Virus record (IMG/VR): IMGVR_UViG_3300029904_000001
Coordinates: 128,001 to 176,910 of that record
Direction: 5' to 3' (one strand)
DNA: 48,910 bases
Source: a virus
Taxonomy: Duplodnaviria; Heunggongvirae; Uroviricota; Caudoviricetes
How positions within the stretch are numbered: position 1 is the stretch's first letter; each line of letters starts with the position of its first letter. This document shows, piece by piece, positions 9,011 to 35,596 of the stretch. The notes beneath the pieces are model-generated. The model had not been told where the DNA came from and did no database searches. It worked only from the letters and a program-made list of their open reading frames with translations. Both the position numbers and the translations under genes were made by a program.

Positions 9011-9937
9011 TTACTGTCCTTGTTGCTGTGGTGCCTGCTGTTGAGGAATTCCACTAGCAATTGTTTGGTTAATAGGTAGATTTGTTTGTAATCTTGGATC
9101 ACTTGCATTTTCCATTATAAGCTTAGTGAAAATATTAACGATTTCAAAACAAACATAATCTGGAAATTCGAGAACTTGAGATGTATCTTCAGTTGTATCA
9201 ATTTGTAATTGAGTAAGTCTGATATATTGTGGACCCTTAAGATAATCTACATAAGCTCTTTCAGGAGTAAACAAATTGGAATCTTTACCGAATCTAATTT
9301 CAAGTAAAACTTTTGTTACATTAACATTACGTCCTTGTACCGGTTTAATAGAATCTACGGTAGATGTTTTATCAGTAAGACCTTGTGCAGAATCTGGAAT
9401 TTGATCATCCATTGTTGAATTAGTTGGAAGTGAAATTTCAGAATTTCAATTATTCACATAATAATAAGGTCTTTTATACATTGGACGCATATAAGCATTA
9501 TTAAGAATTCCAGAGAACATGTCTGATGTTAATCTACGAGCAGCAAACTGTACTTTTTCTGAAGGTTCGTAACATTTAAATGGTTTTGCTACTTTATATT
9601 CTACAATACAGTTAAGCATATGTAAATAATCTTTAGGAAGTTCTCCTATAAAAGATTCTCCAAATAATGCTGATTGGGTAAAATCTTCGCCAATTCCTCC
9701 TTCGCCAATTCCTCCTTCGCCAATTCCTCCTTTAAACAAAGGAATAATTGTAGAAGTTTTTAAAACTCGAAGATCGTCAGTACTTTGTTGATTTATATCA
9801 TACCGATTATAAATTATATTAATGTACTGCTGGACAGCTTTATTTATAAAATAGTTATAGTCTTCTAGAAGTAATGATGGAGCTTCCAATTTGTTACATT
9901 CTATAAGAGCATATTCATAAAGTTCACGAGCTGTCAT
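9011..9937 (-). CDS. Head-tail adaptor/ring protein (308 aa, code 4)
   Basis: Track ORFs 9446..9937 and 9011..9412 are in frame across one TGA. Motifs YNYFINKA, LPKDYLH, YVDYLKGP, LEFPDYV. Confidence 0.7.
9686..9730. repeat. Perfect 15-bp tandem repeat x3 encoding (GGIGE)3
   Basis: ttcgccaattcctcc at 9686, 9701 and 9716. Confidence 0.95.
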
Positions 9938-10907: not shown

Positions 10908-13900
10908 CTAGAATAAGTAATTAGATACTTCTTCTGAAATTAGAATTACGGAACGATAAGGGTTGAAGACTCCAGTAGCTGCATAACCCCAGTTTATTCA
11001 TATTATGTTACAATAAATATTAAATCTACTGCTCTCAGTTGAGACTTATTGTTACCAATAAGATCAGACTATATCATAAACTTAATCTATAAATTTAAAT
11101 TTAAAACCATGTGTTTGATTTCTATTTCCTTTAAGAACGTCTCTACATTTAGGATGTTCTTTTGTACATGCAGCTAAAGATTCTCATATTTTTACTAAAT
11201 TTCCTTCTAAGTCGTATTGTGCTATTTTTCTTCCAACAGGTTTTTCTTGTTTAATATAAGTTTCATTAAAACCAAAACTTCATAATAAATTTTCAATTGG
11301 ATTTCCAGTTGAAATTGCTTTTTTAATATCAGAAAATTTAATTTTAGTTTCTTTAGCGGCTTGGGTAATAGATGGATACGTTCTTATGATCTGTTTAGTG
11401 TCTTTATTATAAGAAGAAACACATTTATCATTTTTAACTGCTAATTCTTCTCTTTTTTTAATTATATCCATAATATTACCATTACTAATAAAATAAAATC
11501 CTTTAATCGGAACCTTTCTTGACATTGCATCATCTACTGAAGCTTGTGATAAATTGAATTTTTCTCTAATGTCTTTAACACTTTCAAATATTTCAAGAAA
11601 ATTTCCATTTAAATCGTACTGATAAATTTCTGAATGACCGCTTTTTCTATAATCGGTTACATCTAATTTCTCTACATATTTCTTAGTTCAATATGAATTA
11701 AATGCGCTTCTTTGATCTGTTATAGCCATATTAAAACGGTTACTATTGCATTGATAATATTTTACTGCATCTCCAACAGAAAACCATTCTTTAATAAAGT
11801 TACCTTCTAAATCATATTGATATAATTTATCATAAACAACTCCAGAATGTTTTCCACCTAAAGAAGTATTATAATTATCATGTCTTTTTAAGAATTCAAT
11901 ATCAACGATACGAGCTTCTTCGTTATAAGCATCATCTTCGTTATCAAATATTTTTAGTGTTGATCTATAAAAGTTACTATATCCATATTTTTTAAGTGCA
12001 AATTGAAATGCAGTCTGTGGATTCTTTATAGATCATCCTATTTCGATACCGTTGCCGATGTAACCGTCGAAAACGTCCGGATTTTCTGTTTTATGGACAC
12101 CGATATATATTTTTCCGTTTATTTTATTAGTTGTACAATATAAAATTCATTTCATGTTATTATTTTTTATTTGTTAAGTTTCTCTCCATTTCCACAATAC
12201 TATTATTGTGTAATCCCATTCGGGATAGTCGTTGAACTTTACCTAACCTGTCCTCTTGAGAATCTAGTTAAGTCTTAGCTGCTGATTTTCCAAAATGTTT
12301 TGGATTTCCCAGCAATTAAAAGAGTTATCACACATTATCACTAATATGCGAGCCAATTAGTTTAGCTTTGATGCAGCAACAGGGCTAGAGACTTCACCAT
12401 GCTGTAATCCGGTAGCTCCGCCTACGCCTCTAATAAAGTTATGGATGAATTCACCGTTTTTGAACGTGAAGAATGCACAATTGTGCTCAATATATTTCTA
12501 TATTGTTTAGACTATATCATAAACTTAATCTTCTAAAAATTTAAAAGTACATTTTTTACAAGTTTTTCTTGTTCCATATAATACGTGTACACAACCACAA
12601 TAATCTTTTTTACAAGCAACAATAGAATCGTAGATAGCTATAAGTTCTCCTTCTTTATTATAAACTCCAACTTTTCTTTTAGCTTCAATTCCACTTTTTG
12701 GTTTGTGTGGTTCTAATTGATCTACTTTATCATAAGATCACAAATAACCATAAGCGGCTTGTCCTATTTTTATTGCGTGTCCAATATGAGATTCTTTTTT
12801 ACCTAAACTTCATGCTGCTTCCTGCATAGAATCAAATGAAGCAATGTAATTTCCTTTTAAATCATATTGATGTATAGGAACGGCTACTTGTGCAGGAGGT
12901 CTATTTCCTCCAATAGTTGCGTTATAAACATCTTTTCTTTTTAAAAATTCAAGAGTTACAATTTCTTTTTCTTTTTTAAGAGCTTCTTCCATAGTATTAA
13001 ATTCAAACAAAGTCACTCTTATAAAAGCATCTGGGCCGTATTTATTTACAGCTCTTTGTAAAGGAGTTTCAGATTTTTTGTACGATGAGGGTTTATTTCT
13101 ATAAATCCCACATCCTAAATATCCATCAAAACCTTTCTTTCTTACAGTATGTACTCCAATATAAAAATGTTTATTTTTCTTATTTACTGTAACGTATACA
13201 ATGTACTTTATACTTTGTTTTAAGTTTTCCTCCATTTCCATTATAATTTAATAGTTAATAATGTACTCTACTAGGCTCGAAGCCGTTCGATAGTCGTTGA
13301 ACCTTCGTAGGACTACCAATCCTGGCCTGTTACTCCCTACGCTTGGCTGCTGATCGGCATATCTAAATAGACTTAGCTTTCCAGCAATTAAAAGGATTTT
13401 TAAACATAGATCACTCTATGCTGCCGCTGCAATTTCTTCAACGGCTGGTTTCCCCGATGTAGCATCTGCCGTTAAATCGAGGAATATTCCGTATTTTCTA
13501 TTAGGATATTCAATATCGAATGATCTATCGATCTTAAATGTAACAGTATTACCTGCAAATTCATAAGAATGATAAGTAGCACCAATATTTACATATCCAT
13601 TAGCTGCCTTCGAGAATACAAATGTTCCTACTGTCTTCCAGTCACGAATCCAAGCACTCATGGTATCCTGGATCTCGTTCCAGCATAAAGTATTACAAAG
13701 GAACATATCATTTGTGTTAGCTATACATTTCTGTATAGATCAGACTATATCTTTAACCTTTAAGGTTATCTCCCATTTCCAAATTTTGTACACCTTTCGG
13801 TTAGTCGTTAAACTTTGTTATAATTATAACTTTAGCTGTTGATTATCCATAAAATTAATTTGGACTTCCCAACAATTAAGGAGATTAATTAATATAACTG

Positions 13901-16900
13901 TCGCCAGTTACCCACCCTATTTGTTTCTCATTTAAGGTGTTACCCGTAGGCTTCTCACTCTTCTGAATCATTACCTGAAGAGCGCGATTGAAGTATTTAG
14001 GATTAAGACGATTAAACACGAACTTGGTAGCAAAGCGTTCGATTTGAGCGATAATCAATTTTGTTACCGTAAAGTTGTTTATACTTTACTTCTTATACTT
14101 TTATTCGTATAAGTTCAGACTATATCTTCATCTAGTTAATATTAGATGACTCTTGTTCGTGGATTTATAATTATTCTCCAGGTTTCATAATTTTATATTC
14201 AAATTCTCTAAGAATATAAGGTCTTATTAAATCTGAAAATTTTCTACCTTCTCTTGTTCTAAATTGAAGATTATACACAATGGTACCATCTTTCTTTTTT
14301 CTTTTAATTGGATACATTATGATATTATATTTTTCTTTAAACATATCAATAATATTTTGCGTATCTTCTTCATTTGTCATTGTTGCTAAACCAAATTTAT
14401 GAGAAGCGATTCTTCCAGTTTTCTTATTTCTTTCTATTGCGTGTGTTCCATCATCCATTCATCAAATGGCTATAGCTTCAGGAGTTAAATATGATAAAAT
14501 ATGTTTAGAAAAATGTTTAATTTTATCTGTATACATTCATTTTCTTAATATTTTAAAATATTTATGTCCTTTTGATATTTTATAACAATCTGTATCTTTT
14601 CGATGATATAATTTTGGTTCTTTACAATTAAGAAGTTTTGCAATTAATCTTGCTTTTCATTCTACATAAAATTTTTGATTGTGCCCATGAGAAATCTCAA
14701 GAGCTACGCCTGAATTAGGATTTAAATGACCATCTCCTAATACAAGTCCAATTAAAAGTGATTTCTTAAGTTTATCCATATTAAATGCTATTTTTTAATT
14801 ATAAATCTAGTCGTTACACATGCCCGATTATTAATAATCTGCTAGCTCGGTATTCTCATCTCAGAGTTCACCGAATTAAAGAGTTGTTTCAGAGAGTATT
14901 TCTACTCTAAGCGGCACTTCTCATACCGTCTCCGCTTATAATGGGTCTACCAGAATCAGGTTCATAGATCTTTGGTCTTCCATTCTCGTCTACGTCCGTC
15001 TTACCTCATACTAGTTCGTTATTTCTTGCCATCATGAATGTATCCAGACAATCTTTCTCAGCTGAGTTCATCTTGTAAACTGGATCATCCTTCTGACCTT
15101 TACCAATCTGGATAAATACATCCTCCATTGGTTTATACTGTGCAGACATATCGACATCTGCACGATGGGTGCTCATATAAGTGCGGTGTTTCTCAGTGTT
15201 TGACTGATATTTGGTATAGCCTTCTTCCGAGTATCAACTTAGACTATTTAATTAACTTTCTTGGCTTTAAACCAAGTCTTTCTCGTCTTTTAGCTTTAGA
15301 AATAGCAAATTTTGCCTGATTTCTTTCGCGTCTTTCAATAAGTTTAATAGTTTTTTCATCTGGAATATTATAATAATCTGTTTTAAATATGGCTCACATA
15401 AATCCATTTTTATCTGGAGTTTTAAGCTTTATAGATTTAGTTATATTACTATACTTATTAGCTTTTTCAGCCTCTGTTTGAGTATTATAACTTTCTATAA
15501 ATTCTCCAGTTTTTCCATTATATTTAAAGACAGGACGATTTTGAATATATTGTTTTCTACAATGATCGTACTTTATTTCCCCATTTTTATTTGGAAGAAT
15601 ATAATTGTGCATTGCGTACATATAAGTATTAGTAATCTTATCTTTAAATGAATTTCCACTTAAATAAGATTCTATATAATCATATATAGATTCATCAGCA
15701 ACAATAATCAAATTATTTAAATATGTTCCATTTTCTACTCTAAATCATACAAATCCAGTAATATCTTCTCAAATAAAATTGTTATAAATATTTCTATCTT
15801 TTAATGATTCTTTATTTATAAACGTGTCAAAAATGTATTTTGCAGTATAAAAATCAGATTGAATAGAAATAATCGCTCTATCAAAATTATTTACTCCATC
15901 TGTTTTAACTGCTCATTGCAATGGAGTTTTAGAATATTGATAAGTATATGGATCATTTTTATATATTCCCGATCCTAAAAATTCTTTATCTATATTATTT
16001 GGATCTTCATACGAAATTCCAATATAATATTTACCACTTTTCTTATTGGTTGTCTTATAGACGAGTCATTTAAAGTTAGTTTCCATTTCTATATTATTTA
16101 AATATATACATCTTACGATTAGTCGTTGAACGTTATCGTATTTACGATCTTCGCTGCGAGTTGTTCAAGAGAATATCAAAGATTGAATTTTCTCGCAATT
16201 AAAAAACTTTTCTATTATATATTACTATATAAAGGCACGAATTTTCATGCATTTCAGGCATTAAGTTGGTTATAAAACGAGTAGCAGAACCTATAAATGC
16301 ACCACTTGTATCAAGAACTGAATCGTAGCTATTATCAAGAATCTTACCTACAACCAAGAAATCTTTATCAGAAATTCTCTGAGGACGATTCAATACTATA
16401 ATTTGCTGACGTGTTCTTTCAATAATAAATGTATCATACTTCTGATAGTAGTTCTCATTAAAATGGAAGATGATATCTGAGCCCATAGCTCCATCTCCCT
16501 CTGGAACTGCTGTCATATATACTCTCTTAATACGATTAATATTAAGATCCCATTCAATTAAGAATGAATCAACTCTCTGGAACTGATTCTTTTTGCCCTT
16601 CTCAAGAGTATAAGTGTTCATAAGAGCTTCAGTCAGGTGAGTTGCAGTATATTGATCATATAGAGTAGATACAATACCTAACCTCGCGGGATTGGCTAAG
16701 CTATATTGCTTAGACTATATCATCTCTCTCGAGTCTTGCGCTTCGGTTAAATCAACCTACCTCTTACGAGTAGTCGTTGAACTTTCCAATTTAATTTTGG
16801 ATTAGCTGCTGATTATTTTATATTAAATAAACCTTCCAGCAATTCACAAGATTTTCAATTAATATCCAACTTATTAATTGGGGCGCTTCTATTCACCCAA

Positions 16901-16975
16901 GAACTTCATAAAGTCCTCAAAAGTGCGAGTTTCGCTCATGTTAGGTCTAGTAGTTGTAAAACCTGATATTCTCAT
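10908..16975 (-). CDS. Major capsid protein, 7 exons, 475 aa spliced
   Basis: Exons 16975-16895, 16696-16247, 15227-14925, 14055-13935, 13708-13441, 12477-12364 and 10998-10908 sum to 1428 nt in frame. Junctions read KFLG|ANPARLG, EMH|EEGY, SGDG|IIAQ, GNT-Y-MFLC, KPA-V-AFFT, SK-L-INWGY. One in-frame TGA (15006-15008). Follows an acidic scaffold-like gene. Confidence 0.88.
10999..12363 (-). mobile_element. Group I intron 6 of the MCP (1365 nt) with homing endonuclease
   Basis: P1 AGCT/GGCT with U.G at the 5' splice site, R element TTCAACGACTA, S element GATATAGTC, terminal G at 10999. Confidence 0.9.
11082..12155 (-). CDS. GIY-YIG homing endonuclease with NUMOD1-like repeats (357 aa, code 4)
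   Basis: MKWILYCTTNKINGKIYIGVH...FDGYIGNG and repeated YQYDLxGxF motifs. Codon 3 is TGA. Confidence 0.85.
12478..13440 (-). mobile_element. Group I intron 5 of the MCP (963 nt) with homing endonuclease
   Basis: P1 GCCGT/GCGGC, P10 TGCA pairing, R and S elements, terminal G at 12478. Confidence 0.9.
12525..13241 (-). CDS. GIY-YIG homing endonuclease with NUMOD1-like C-terminus
   Basis: YIVYVTVNKKNKHFYIGVH...FDGYLGCG and QYDLKGNYI. Extends through two TGA to TAA 12525. Start codon uncertain. Confidence 0.85.
13709..13934 (-). mobile_element. Group I intron 4 of the MCP (226 nt, no ORF)
   Basis: P1 CACCT/GGGTG, AACGACTA and AAGATATAGTC core, terminal G at 13709. Splicing restores TAT (Tyr). 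Confidence 0.9.
14056..14924 (-). mobile_element. Group I intron 3 of the MCP (869 nt) with LAGLIDADG endonuclease
   Basis: P1 CGGTA/TGCCG, GTAACGACTA and GAAGATATAGTC core, terminal G at 14056. Confidence 0.9.
14171..14779 (-). CDS. Two-motif LAGLIDADG homing endonuclease (I-SceI-like, 202 aa, code 4)
   Basis: Motifs LIGLVLGDG and LTPEAIAIWWMDDG, in which WW is TGA-TGA. Confidence 0.88.
15228..16246 (-). mobile_element. Group I intron 2 of the MCP (1019 nt) with endonuclease ORF
   Basis: P1 GCATGAA/TTCGTGC, TTCAACGACTA, atypical S element AAATAGTC, terminal G at 15228. Confidence 0.85.
15244..16086 (-). CDS. Divergent GIY-YIG/NUMOD1 homing endonuclease (280 aa, code 4)
   Basis: METNFKWLVYKTTNKKSGKYYIG...FLGSGIY. 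Includes track fragment 15394..15711. Its TAG stop lies inside P7. Confidence 0.75.
16697..16894 (-). mobile_element. Group I intron 1 of the MCP (198 nt, no ORF, junction ambiguous by 1 nt)
   Basis: P1 GGGTG/CGCCC, TTCAACGACTA and GATATAGTC core. The in-frame join needs a terminal A or a shifted 5' site. Confidence 0.82.
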
Positions 16976-33147: not shown

Positions 33148-35596
33148 CTATGAATTTCTTATTCGATCATTATAAGGATTACCATCGTTTAGCTGTAATA
33201 TTTCAGCTTCAAGTTCCTTTTCTTTTAAATCTGTTAATTTTTTATCGTTTTCTCGTTTATCTCTAATCTCTTGTTCTTGAAGAGCAACTTTCTTCTTCTC
33301 AATATCTCATTTAAGATTATTATTTTGCTGTATTTGTGAATTAAGTCGTTCATTTTCTGCTTCAGCTTTCTGTAATTGCTGAGTAAGTTGTTTATTTTGT
33401 GAATCCAATTGCTGTACTTGCTGTTGCAATTGTTGAATAACATTATTCTCTTGTTTTTTCTCTTCAAGAGCTTCTTCAAGATAATCCTTCATTTCGGTCA
33501 TATTTTTGGCCATTAAAGTATTAATAATCATTGCTGGATCAGCTTGTCCAGATTTGACAAATTCAATACTTAATTGGTTAAGAGTTTCTCTAACTCTGAA
33601 CATATCAGAACTATCTTGAATATGAATATCAAAATCAGTAACAGTGTAATATTCTGGCAGAGCTGTAAATATTTCTTTTGCTTTATTACCTAATATTATT
33701 GTGCCAGTCAGACCATGTTTAAATACTACTTTAGCTAGATTTAATAAATCATAATTCATTTCTTTGTACATTAAATCCATAGCATAGAAGTATTGTTTAG
33801 TTAAAATAGTTGATTGTCTAATCCCAACTTTAACATTAGATACAGCGTCTCTTTGCTGGATTCCTCCAAGTTTTTCTGGAAATACACCAGTTATATTACA
33901 TGCTTGTTGTTCAACTGAATCAATAGCGATTTGAATAGCTTGTATAGATTGTGCTTTAACTGTATCATCAAATCCATTAAATGTAGTATTTAAAGGAATT
34001 CCTTCTTCTGAAGAATCTATAATAGCCATTCCATTTTTCTTATATGCTTTCCATTTCGCTAATTTTTCTGGAAGTTCTACTCCTAGTGCTGAAGGTATAT
34101 GTGCAATATCAATTCAATCTCCAACTGTTCCCGATGTTGCAATTAGATTATCACGATAGTAGATAAGGAGGTCTAGCTTCACTATGTTCACGTAAAGTCG
34201 TTAATTTTACGCAGTTTTCTAAGAAACTTCTATATGTCGCCATATAGATCAGACTATATCATATCTAATTAATAGATCCTCGCGCTTCGACTCACTTGAG
34301 TCTACATTTAGTCGTTGATCCTTCCAAATAAATTTGGCTTGGATGCTGATTATCTACATGAGATTTCCCAGCAGTTCACGAGGTTTACCCAGGACTAAGC
34401 TACTAATCCTGCAAGTCCATTGTATTTAACATTAGACTAAAAGGTTGACCATTCTTATCATTTAGAAACATTCCATTAACACTTAATGTACATGTTTTAG
34501 GGTCATGTTGACTCCTACATATATATTTAGATTCACCTCTAGTGATAAATATTTCTTCTCCAATTTTTACACCTTCATGACGAGTTACTCTATTTTTATC
34601 TTTATCTCATTCAAGTCATTCACATTCATAAACTGGAATTACTGGATTATTGTTATAATTATACATTCCAGTTTCATTTCATGGGAATACAGGTGTAACT
34701 TCTAATCCTCCTAAGATACCTGGAGAAGGAACTACTCTGGTTGCAGTATATTCATTATCTGCACCTTCTACAGAACGAGGTTGTCTAATATATACTGTAT
34801 TATAATTACGTTCTCCTTTAGAAGCATAATCTTTTAAAATACTTTTTGCTTCAGATGAAAGTTCATCGTTAAATTCTTGAAAAATCTGTTCTTCAGTCAT
34901 TCATCTACGAATAACTGCACGTTGAGATCTATTTAAATAGAATTCATTACGATTTCTTTCTATAAATGTATCAAGAGGATTAAGAACTTCAATTTTTAAA
35001 TTTTCTCCACTACCAGAAGGTTTTGTTCTATAATAACATATTCCAGAAATTAATAAATCAGTAAACAATTCACGCATTTTGTTTTTTAAATCCAAATCAC
35101 GTGAATGTTTTATATAATTAAGTATGTTTTGAGCAGCTCTTTCATATTCAGATACAAATGATTTATCTATATCTTTTTTAAGTTTCTCAATCTCTTTCTC
35201 GATAAAAGGATCGCTAGGAGCTTGTTTACCTTCAACAAAAACTTGAATGACTAAGTTTTTTAGTTTAGATTCTAATAATTTATATACTTGTTTATTAATT
35301 TCAAGTTGTTTATCTCTCATTATATTAGATACTGTTTTTTCATCTTTACAAGTAACTTGAAGATCAGGATCTAATTCAAGATATTCTCCAACCAATACAT
35401 CAATATGTTTTTTAATAAGTGGAGTAAATCCAATAGATGTTGGAACTCCAATTCCGTAATTATCTTCTATATGTCGAAATTGTTCAGCATCTCGAATACA
35501 GTGATAATAATTGTAAGCTTTTTTTAATTGAACTTTCTCGTAGATAAGATCTTGAATACATTTATTTATGTTTTCAATTTCTTTTTGTCTGTTCAT
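33148..35596 (-). CDS. Portal protein, 2 exons, 740 aa (code 4)
   Basis: Exons 35596-34406 and 34179-33148. Motifs AYNYY, PLIKKHIDVLVGE, NPLD, ITGV...LG, with a Gln-rich C-terminal coil. Follows terL. Confidence 0.88.
34180..34405 (-). mobile_element. Group I intron in portal (226 nt, no ORF)
   Basis: P1 CAGGAT/GTCCTG, P10 TAGCTT/AAGCTA, ATCAACGACTA and GATATAGTC core, terminal G. Splicing gives LQD|KLDLL. Confidence 0.9.

Follow-up and report, generated by a model that had tools for sequence, protein, structure and literature searches.

A probable crAss-like phage major capsid gene interrupted by six predicted group I introns

Structure and code of the capsid gene

The window analysed here is a 48,910-nt stretch of DNA, the last 48.9 kb (genome positions 128001-176910) of the 176,910-bp IMG/VR record IMGVR_UViG_3300029904_000001, a Caudoviricetes genome with direct terminal repeats and a complete rating. 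Between 16975 and 10908 its minus strand carries a gene for a putative major capsid protein (MCP), split into seven exons totalling 1428 nt by six introns totalling 4640 nt, the introns making up 76% of the transcribed span. Minus-strand open reading frames (ORFs) read from stop to stop across 16990-10908 include seven pieces that resemble parts of a single protein, and a tblastn search using the uninterrupted homologue of a GenBank gut phage contig (L002:5914-7335, 473 aa) as the query returned seven colinear minus-strand blocks in the window. Junctions were placed by scanning all in-frame joins around each gap and scoring them for their fit to the 475-aa protein of an intronless IMG/VR relative (L005). 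Strains of the same species provided a second line of evidence on the junctions. A pattern search for near-identical sequences found none in IMG/VR and none in two metagenome scans, whereas a search for contigs with an identical exon-2 ORF recruited L025 (from ENA), L026 (from Logan) and L027. At the predicted joins J3-J6, the DNA of L026 and L027 is uninterrupted and agrees with the joined exons at 28-36 of 40 nt without an indel, and these empty sites fix introns 3-6 to the base. The resulting model is given below in order of transcription, where P1 is the pairing between the end of the upstream exon and the guide of the intron, omega G is a terminal guanosine, dN/dS is the ratio of nonsynonymous to synonymous substitution rates, and ^ marks a splice junction.

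16895..16975 (-), MCP exon 1, 81 nt; ATG at 16975-16973, end ...TTGGGT; tblastn block aa 1-27, junction scan
16697..16894 (-), intron 1, 198 nt, no ORF; P1 GGGU/GCCC, U.G at 16895; last base A16697
16247..16696 (-), MCP exon 2, 450 nt; tblastn, junction scan; dN/dS against L003
15228..16246 (-), intron 2, 1019 nt; GIY-YIG ORF between the P7 strands; P1 GCAU^GAA/UUCGUGC, U.G at 16247; omega G 15228
14925..15227 (-), MCP exon 3, 303 nt; in-frame TGA at 15008-15006; tblastn
14056..14924 (-), intron 3, 869 nt; LAGLIDADG ORF; P1 CGGU/GCCG, U.G at 14925; omega G 14056
13935..14055 (-), MCP exon 4, 121 nt; tblastn, junction scan, empty-site strains
13709..13934 (-), intron 4, 226 nt, no ORF; P1 CACCU/GGGUG, U.G at 13935; omega G 13709
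13441..13708 (-), MCP exon 5, 268 nt; tblastn, junction scan, empty-site strains
12478..13440 (-), intron 5, 963 nt; GIY-YIG/NUMOD1 ORF; P1 GCCGU/GCGGC, U.G at 13441; omega G 12478
12364..12477 (-), MCP exon 6, 114 nt; tblastn, junction scan, empty-site strains
10999..12363 (-), intron 6, 1365 nt; GIY-YIG/NUMOD1 ORF; P1 AGCU/GGCU, U.G at 12364; 3-bp P10; omega G 10999
10908..10998 (-), MCP exon 7, 91 nt; includes the TAG stop at 10910-10908; tblastn, junction scan

An earlier reading of this DNA, made without database searches and referred to here as the sequence-only reading, had proposed seven exons joining to a 475-aa ORF, and its exon and intron totals were reproduced exactly. The predicted spliced coding sequence consists of 475 codons followed by TAG and contains a single in-frame TGA at codon 251, which aligns with a Trp of the intronless relatives L005 and L010; the ORF is open only when this TGA is read through. 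The summed length of long ORFs approximately doubles when TGA is read through and hardly changes when TAG is read through, indicating that TGA is a sense codon in the code of this phage, which reads it as Trp. The combination of six introns and a recoded stop causes standard annotation to fragment the gene, for which the present analysis offers a base-accurate model. ARAGORN, run on the whole genome and also at low stringency, found no tRNA with a UCA anticodon; it located eight tRNA genes at genome positions 31-37 kb, and TGA is clearly Trp in the late genes and in the intron ORFs. A mismatch between tRNAs and the TGA code has likewise been noted in some genomes of the Zeta group of crAss-like phages (Yutin et al. 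2021, PMC7886860).

The spliced product aligns with the L005 protein over 475 aa without a gap and at 77.1% identity, and its identity to the L010 and L002 proteins is 69.6% and 51.1%, respectively. The colinear, gap-free fit to L005 is the outcome of a comparison with intronless MCPs that the sequence-only reading had put forward as a check on its model. Among these homologues, L010 and L002 match Pfam PF23898 (Crass_capsid) with 47.5 and 52.2 bits, respectively (cutoff, 27 bits); L002 also matches the PHROG 'major head protein'. Of 555 uninterrupted homologues, 120 were listed, and most of these have PF23898; weak CrAss_Ring_1 and CrAss_Ring_2 matches lie downstream of the capsid gene, as expected in a crAss-like structural module. 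A megablast search of the region against GenBank phages gave no match, tblastn returned two records only, both unannotated, and searches of the PDB with the L002 sequence and with the family profile found no capsid structure. Comparison of exon 2 with L003 gave a dN/dS of 0.09, and the window and L026 differ by 57 synonymous changes yet show 100% identity in capsid residues 178-475. The capsid exons are thus under strong purifying selection.

Group I cores, endonuclease genes and the end of intron 1

All six introns matched the Rfam group I model RF00028 (gathering score, 50 bits), with E values from 4e-4 to 4e-19:

Intron 1: 45.1 bits, 16733-16853 (-), core only
Intron 2: 48.4 bits, 16110-16252 (-), detected only when the intron was searched alone
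Intron 3: 25.2 bits
Intron 4: 78.2 bits, full length, above the gathering score
Intron 5: 47.3 bits (5' part) and 22.2 bits (3' part)
Intron 6: 38.3 bits (12182-12324, -) and 31.1 bits (11045-11156, -)

A P7 5' strand resembling GTTCAACGACTA precedes GATATAGTCT in each intron, intron 2 having AAATAGTCT instead, and pairs of the form ACGACTA ... ATAGTCT stand in the correct order in all six. Exact copies of the 10-mer GATATAGTCT number six in the window, all on the minus strand, with five in capsid introns and one in a portal intron; from the sequence length, we estimate that about 0.1 exact matches would be expected by chance. Every one of the six upstream exon ends is a U, each within a readable P1 of 4-7 bp that includes the U.G pair, and the six P1 guides differ from one another, so that splice sites should not get mixed up. 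The last intron base is G in five of the six (introns 2-6). Read in the frame of the upstream exon, each intron presents a TAA or TAG 6-50 nt inside it and never a TGA first. Ribosomes need to be kept out of the core of a group I ribozyme, and early in-frame stops fit this need. The sequence-only reading had called all six group I introns, each with a P1 U.G and a P7 core, and had asked for a search with group I models; the RF00028 matches and the order of the P7 strands agree with that call.

Two boundaries suggested by the Rfam alignments were not adopted. For intron 3, the global alignment places the 3' half inside the endonuclease ORF, and it was dropped in favour of a core read from the sequence at 14160-14056, where a P8 hairpin is followed by AAGAUAUAGUCUGAAC, two hairpins and the terminal G14056. 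For intron 4, an end at 13721 as given by Rfam would add four residues to the protein; L026 and L003 run continuously across the join at 13709, and the omega G at this position lies 12 nt past the end of the model.

Four of the introns contain endonuclease ORFs, all of which, with TGA read as Trp, sit between the two P7 strands of their introns:

15244..16086 (-), intron 2 endonuclease, ~280 aa, GIY-YIG type; phrog_314 3.4e-8; 5 in-frame TGA after the ATG
14171..14779 (-), intron 3 endonuclease, 202 aa, LAGLIDADG_2; PF03161 95.8 bits; phrog_11023; 4 TGA
12525..13241 (-), intron 5 endonuclease, 238 aa, GIY-YIG/NUMOD1; NUMOD1 43.4 bits; phrog_314 7e-28; 2 TGA
11082..12155 (-), intron 6 endonuclease, 357 aa, GIY-YIG/NUMOD1; NUMOD1 68.3 bits; phrog_314 3.5e-22; 5 TGA

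The presence of two to five in-frame TGA codons in each ORF indicates that these genes are written in the phage's own code. The PF03161 match of the intron 3 ORF covers profile positions 2-168 of 168 (cutoff, 25 bits). The Pfam GIY-YIG profile (PF01541) stays below its cutoff in the capsid-intron ORFs, reaching 17.6 bits for intron 5, and the intron 2 ORF is without any Pfam match. The N-termini of the three GIY-YIG proteins nevertheless align, with 34-38% identity between that of intron 2 and the other two, an (I/L)VY...YIG motif, and invariant Y11, Y22-I-G, R71 and E94. The Pfam and PHROG matches and this alignment bear out the three GIY-YIG genes and one LAGLIDADG gene that the sequence-only reading had named.

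Taken together, these analyses indicate that this is very probably a working major capsid gene, invaded by six independent mobile group I introns, in the 176.9-kb genome of a crAss-like gut phage. Under this interpretation, the gene would be transcribed as a pre-mRNA of ~6.1 kb in which each intron would fold separately, pair its own guide with the end of the upstream exon (P1, with U.G) and be excised through two guanosine-dependent transesterifications, restoring the 1428-nt message for the 475-aa protein. The TAA and TAG codons 6-50 nt into the introns would release ribosomes ahead of the ribozyme core. The putative homing endonucleases would cut intronless alleles of relatives infecting the same cell, and the intron would be copied into these alleles during repair. 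The introns would accordingly be selfish elements that the phage tolerates, because they splice, but does not need.

Several observations weigh against this interpretation. None of the seven exon translations gave a capsid match in PHROGs, and neither exons 2 and 3 of the window nor the L005 protein gave a match in Pfam; because the window's own pieces match neither database alone, the MCP identity rests on homologues. Intron 4 alone exceeds the RF00028 gathering score, the other five falling below it because their matches are partial or interrupted by an ORF, and intron 3 reaches only 25 bits, its 3' core having been recognised by eye. The splicing of all six introns is itself a prediction from sequence. 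Finally, intron 1 ends in A16697 rather than G at the sole join that yields the homologue-like FLG^ANP, even though its P7 retains the G-C pair that binds guanosine, and a one-off error of assembly does not account for this terminal A, which recurs in an independently assembled ENA sequence (L022/L025).

To our knowledge, the omega-G rule is near-universal in group I introns. A G occupies the corresponding position of intron 1 in L003, L004, L006, L015, L016 and L024 as well as in the L023/L026 allele, which is near-identical to that of the window and ends in another 12-nt tail, with G at the canonical place. Only three in-frame joins obey the U rule as well as the G rule, and all of them alter a conserved stretch of the protein. 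One possible explanation, to be held tentatively, is that intron 1 skips the canonical join, either using the upstream G16709, which would add QYSL after FLG, or splicing poorly and thereby lowering the capsid yield. The join 16895/16708 keeps both rules and the frame at the cost of four added residues, and the differing L023/L026 tail, which ends in the canonical G, marks the tail of intron 1 as the variable part. G16709 is, however, just four bases past the 3' strand of P7 and may be too near for the G-binding site, all uninterrupted homologues examined continue from FLG directly into (A/T)(N/K)P, and the A allele is found in several assemblies and hence viable. That intron 1 splices with a 3'-terminal adenosine despite a normal P7 G-C pair is a doubtful reading; were it true, it would be a natural exception to the omega-G rule and the one point of wider interest at this locus. 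The two outcomes predict different sequences at junction 1, GGU^GCC (FLGANP) for the canonical join and GGU^CAAUAU (FLGQYSLANP) for the upstream G, and different junction peptides, FLGANPAR and FLGQYSLANPAR, respectively.

Intron turnover among relatives and sister strains

Intron content was compared across 18 related loci from IMG/VR, in which a few of the automatic junction calls are uncertain. L005 and L010 are intronless, while the others have two to ten interruptions, at no fewer than 16 different insertion positions in the capsid gene. The window's own insertion sites lie, in L005 coordinates, at nt 81, 531, 834, 955, 1223 and 1337. Site 81 is common to most of the relatives, site 834 is shared with L019/L020 and site 1223 with L003; sites 531, 955 and 1337 were found in none of the 18, and 531 is present in the sister strains L026 and L027. 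The relative L003:7500-13800, whose exon 2 is 92% identical to that of the window, has RF00028 matches for ten capsid-gene introns, of which seven exceed the gathering score. Between two of these introns lies an exon of only ~18 nt. The capsid gene is therefore an intron hotspot in this phage lineage, with at least 16 insertion sites. Insertion sites showed no preference for stretches encoding conserved protein (p = 0.50 for 18 sites, p = 0.37 for the window's six). At site 81, the Gly codon before intron 1 is GGT in every intron-bearing allele, where it provides the U of the P1 U.G pair, and is GGG (L005) or GGC (L010) in the intronless ones.

Introns at shared sites resemble one another: intron 1 and its L003 counterpart are 83% identical, and intron 3 is 73% identical to that of L019/L020. 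The ends of intron 5 are 95-96% identical to an ORF-less, 212-nt L003 intron at the same site, indicating that its endonuclease gene is a separable insert. At the intron 2 site, L026:9379-10740 is a 1362-nt variant that matches the window intron in its first ~97 nt and in a 78-nt stretch further on, with ORFs of 155 and 227 aa in place of the 280-aa GIY-YIG protein; here, one endonuclease cargo seems to have replaced another while the surrounding ribozyme was conserved. Other resemblances link introns at neighbouring sites. Intron 2 (16246-15228) is 80% identical over 987 nt to L003:8454-9466, which is inserted 9 nt further downstream, after the GGT of HEEG rather than after CAT, and whose P1 guide reads GCUCUC versus GUGC in the window. 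A similar offset, of 14 nt, separates intron 6 from an L006/L013 intron that it resembles. Introns 2 and 6 and these shifted counterparts look like homologous introns that have been retargeted to neighbouring sites.

Turnover also extends to strains of a single species. L025 is 99.99% identical to the window over 9.3 kb and has the same six introns, whereas L026 has three, at sites 81, 531 and ~1277, and L027 has four, at sites 81 (with a LAGLIDADG ORF), 531, 942 and ~1277. Intron content thus turns over within the species while the capsid protein stays identical. The 57 differences between the window and L026, spread over 894 nt and all synonymous, are not evenly placed: 36 of them fall within 25 nt of the five polymorphic intron sites, where 16 would be expected (p = 6e-8). 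Such clustering is the footprint expected of homing with co-conversion, or of selection for synonymous variants that resist cleavage.

These comparisons bear on whether so many introns could serve the phage. The sequence-only reading had suggested that splicing acts as a timing step, that is, that serial splicing is an adaptive device delaying or metering capsid production; the capsid message should be abundant and late, and 76% of its transcribed span is intron. A needed timing device should, however, be conserved in number and place, whereas among strains whose capsid proteins are identical the intron count is three, four or six, at sites that differ in part; relatives range from none to ten, and of the 120 hits listed from 555 homologues, most have no interruption. 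A timing step is unsupported, since strains that share one protein differ in how many introns they have and where, and the clustered synonymous changes favour homing instead; we therefore consider it improbable. An explanation of the interruptions as inteins, as chimeras of assembly or as remnants of a dead capsid gene is far less probable again, to the point of being negligible. Nothing was found in its favour, the intervening sequences are out of frame or contain TAA or TAG within 6-50 nt, an independent assembly is 99.99% identical over 9.3 kb, purifying selection on the exons is strong, and the record, with its terminal repeats, is a complete genome. Invasion of the gene by mobile introns is thus the reading we retain, and the locus should help both in work on the dynamics of homing in uncultured gut phages and in the correction of phylogenies built on the capsid.

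Comparison with known intron-bearing phages

For the Zeta group of crAss-like phages, proposed as Echekviridae (PMC12386605), Yutin et al. described genomes of 145-192 kb and as many as 14 introns, and asked whether this abundance reflects adaptation or a rampage of mobile elements (PMC7886860). Features of the present phage that are consistent with this group include its 176,910-bp genome with terminal repeats, TGA recoding, RF00028 matches and the weak CrAss_Ring_1/2 matches, and by these features it probably belongs to Zeta. A whole-genome RF00028 search gave seven matches in about six different introns, and with the capsid introns searched singly, the genome has at least eight or nine RF00028-supported group I introns. 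Matches outside the capsid gene were obtained in the portal region (window 34230-34443, minus strand, 65.5 bits) and elsewhere in the genome at 85193-85432 (+) and 82272-82325 (+), with 64.2 and 23.9 bits, respectively.

Within the Zeta group, the complete metagenome-assembled genome (cMAG) OLRF01000054 has an MCP gene with four introns (PMC7886860). The statement of the sequence-only reading that introns in crAss-like core genes are already known holds for this intron-dense group (Yutin et al. 2021, PMC7886860), whereas its description of six introns as 'extreme' does not survive the comparison, given the ten of L003 and this published gene with four (PMC7886860). Endonuclease-encoding group I introns split the MCP gene of both OLRF01000054 and the window; OLRF01000054 has four introns and no recoded stop in its MCP gene, while the window has six introns and one TGA. 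Intron ORFs with TGA were reported in Zeta genomes for PolB (Yutin et al.), and the window's intron ORFs also contain TGA. Heavily intron-split capsid genes are therefore already known in this phage group, and the six-intron case is not new in kind. What it provides beyond the study of Yutin et al. is a set of base-mapped splice sites, empty sites in sister strains and a measured homing footprint. How such introns work is understood no differently in the light of this capsid gene.

The td, nrdB and sunY genes of phage T4 contain group I introns associated with I-TevI-type GIY-YIG endonucleases. The T4 introns and those of the window have in common a P1 U.G pair, a terminal G (in five of the window's six), a looped-out endonuclease ORF, early in-frame stops, and homing, predicted for the window, with co-conversion of flanking exon sequence. 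In T4, however, there is one intron per gene and the genes are those of nucleotide metabolism, whereas the window has six in one structural gene and, unlike T4, endonuclease genes that use the phage's TGA = Trp code. Three group I introns interrupt orf142 of Staphylococcus phage Twort, a case of several self-splicing introns in one phage gene, as predicted for the window, although fewer. Introns in capsid and tail genes are described for Cluster J mycobacteriophages (PMC3706429); these are capsid-gene introns of cultured phages and are fewer per gene than in the window. The Jug jumbo gut phages, which are associated with Bacteroidales, have a mean of 18.5 group I introns per genome and split essential genes, and metatranscriptome reads confirmed splicing for 37 of their 76 predicted introns (PMC12880540). 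They form a separate lineage that uses the standard code, with terL, nrdD and a polymerase gene in two or three pieces (PMC12880540).

A minor observation concerns the structural module beyond the capsid gene. The ORF at 9011-9937 (-), two genes downstream, contains an in-frame triple repeat that is not apparent in its L002 homologue (L002:8302-9258) and that reads GGIGE GGIGE GGIGE at 9640-9700 (-).

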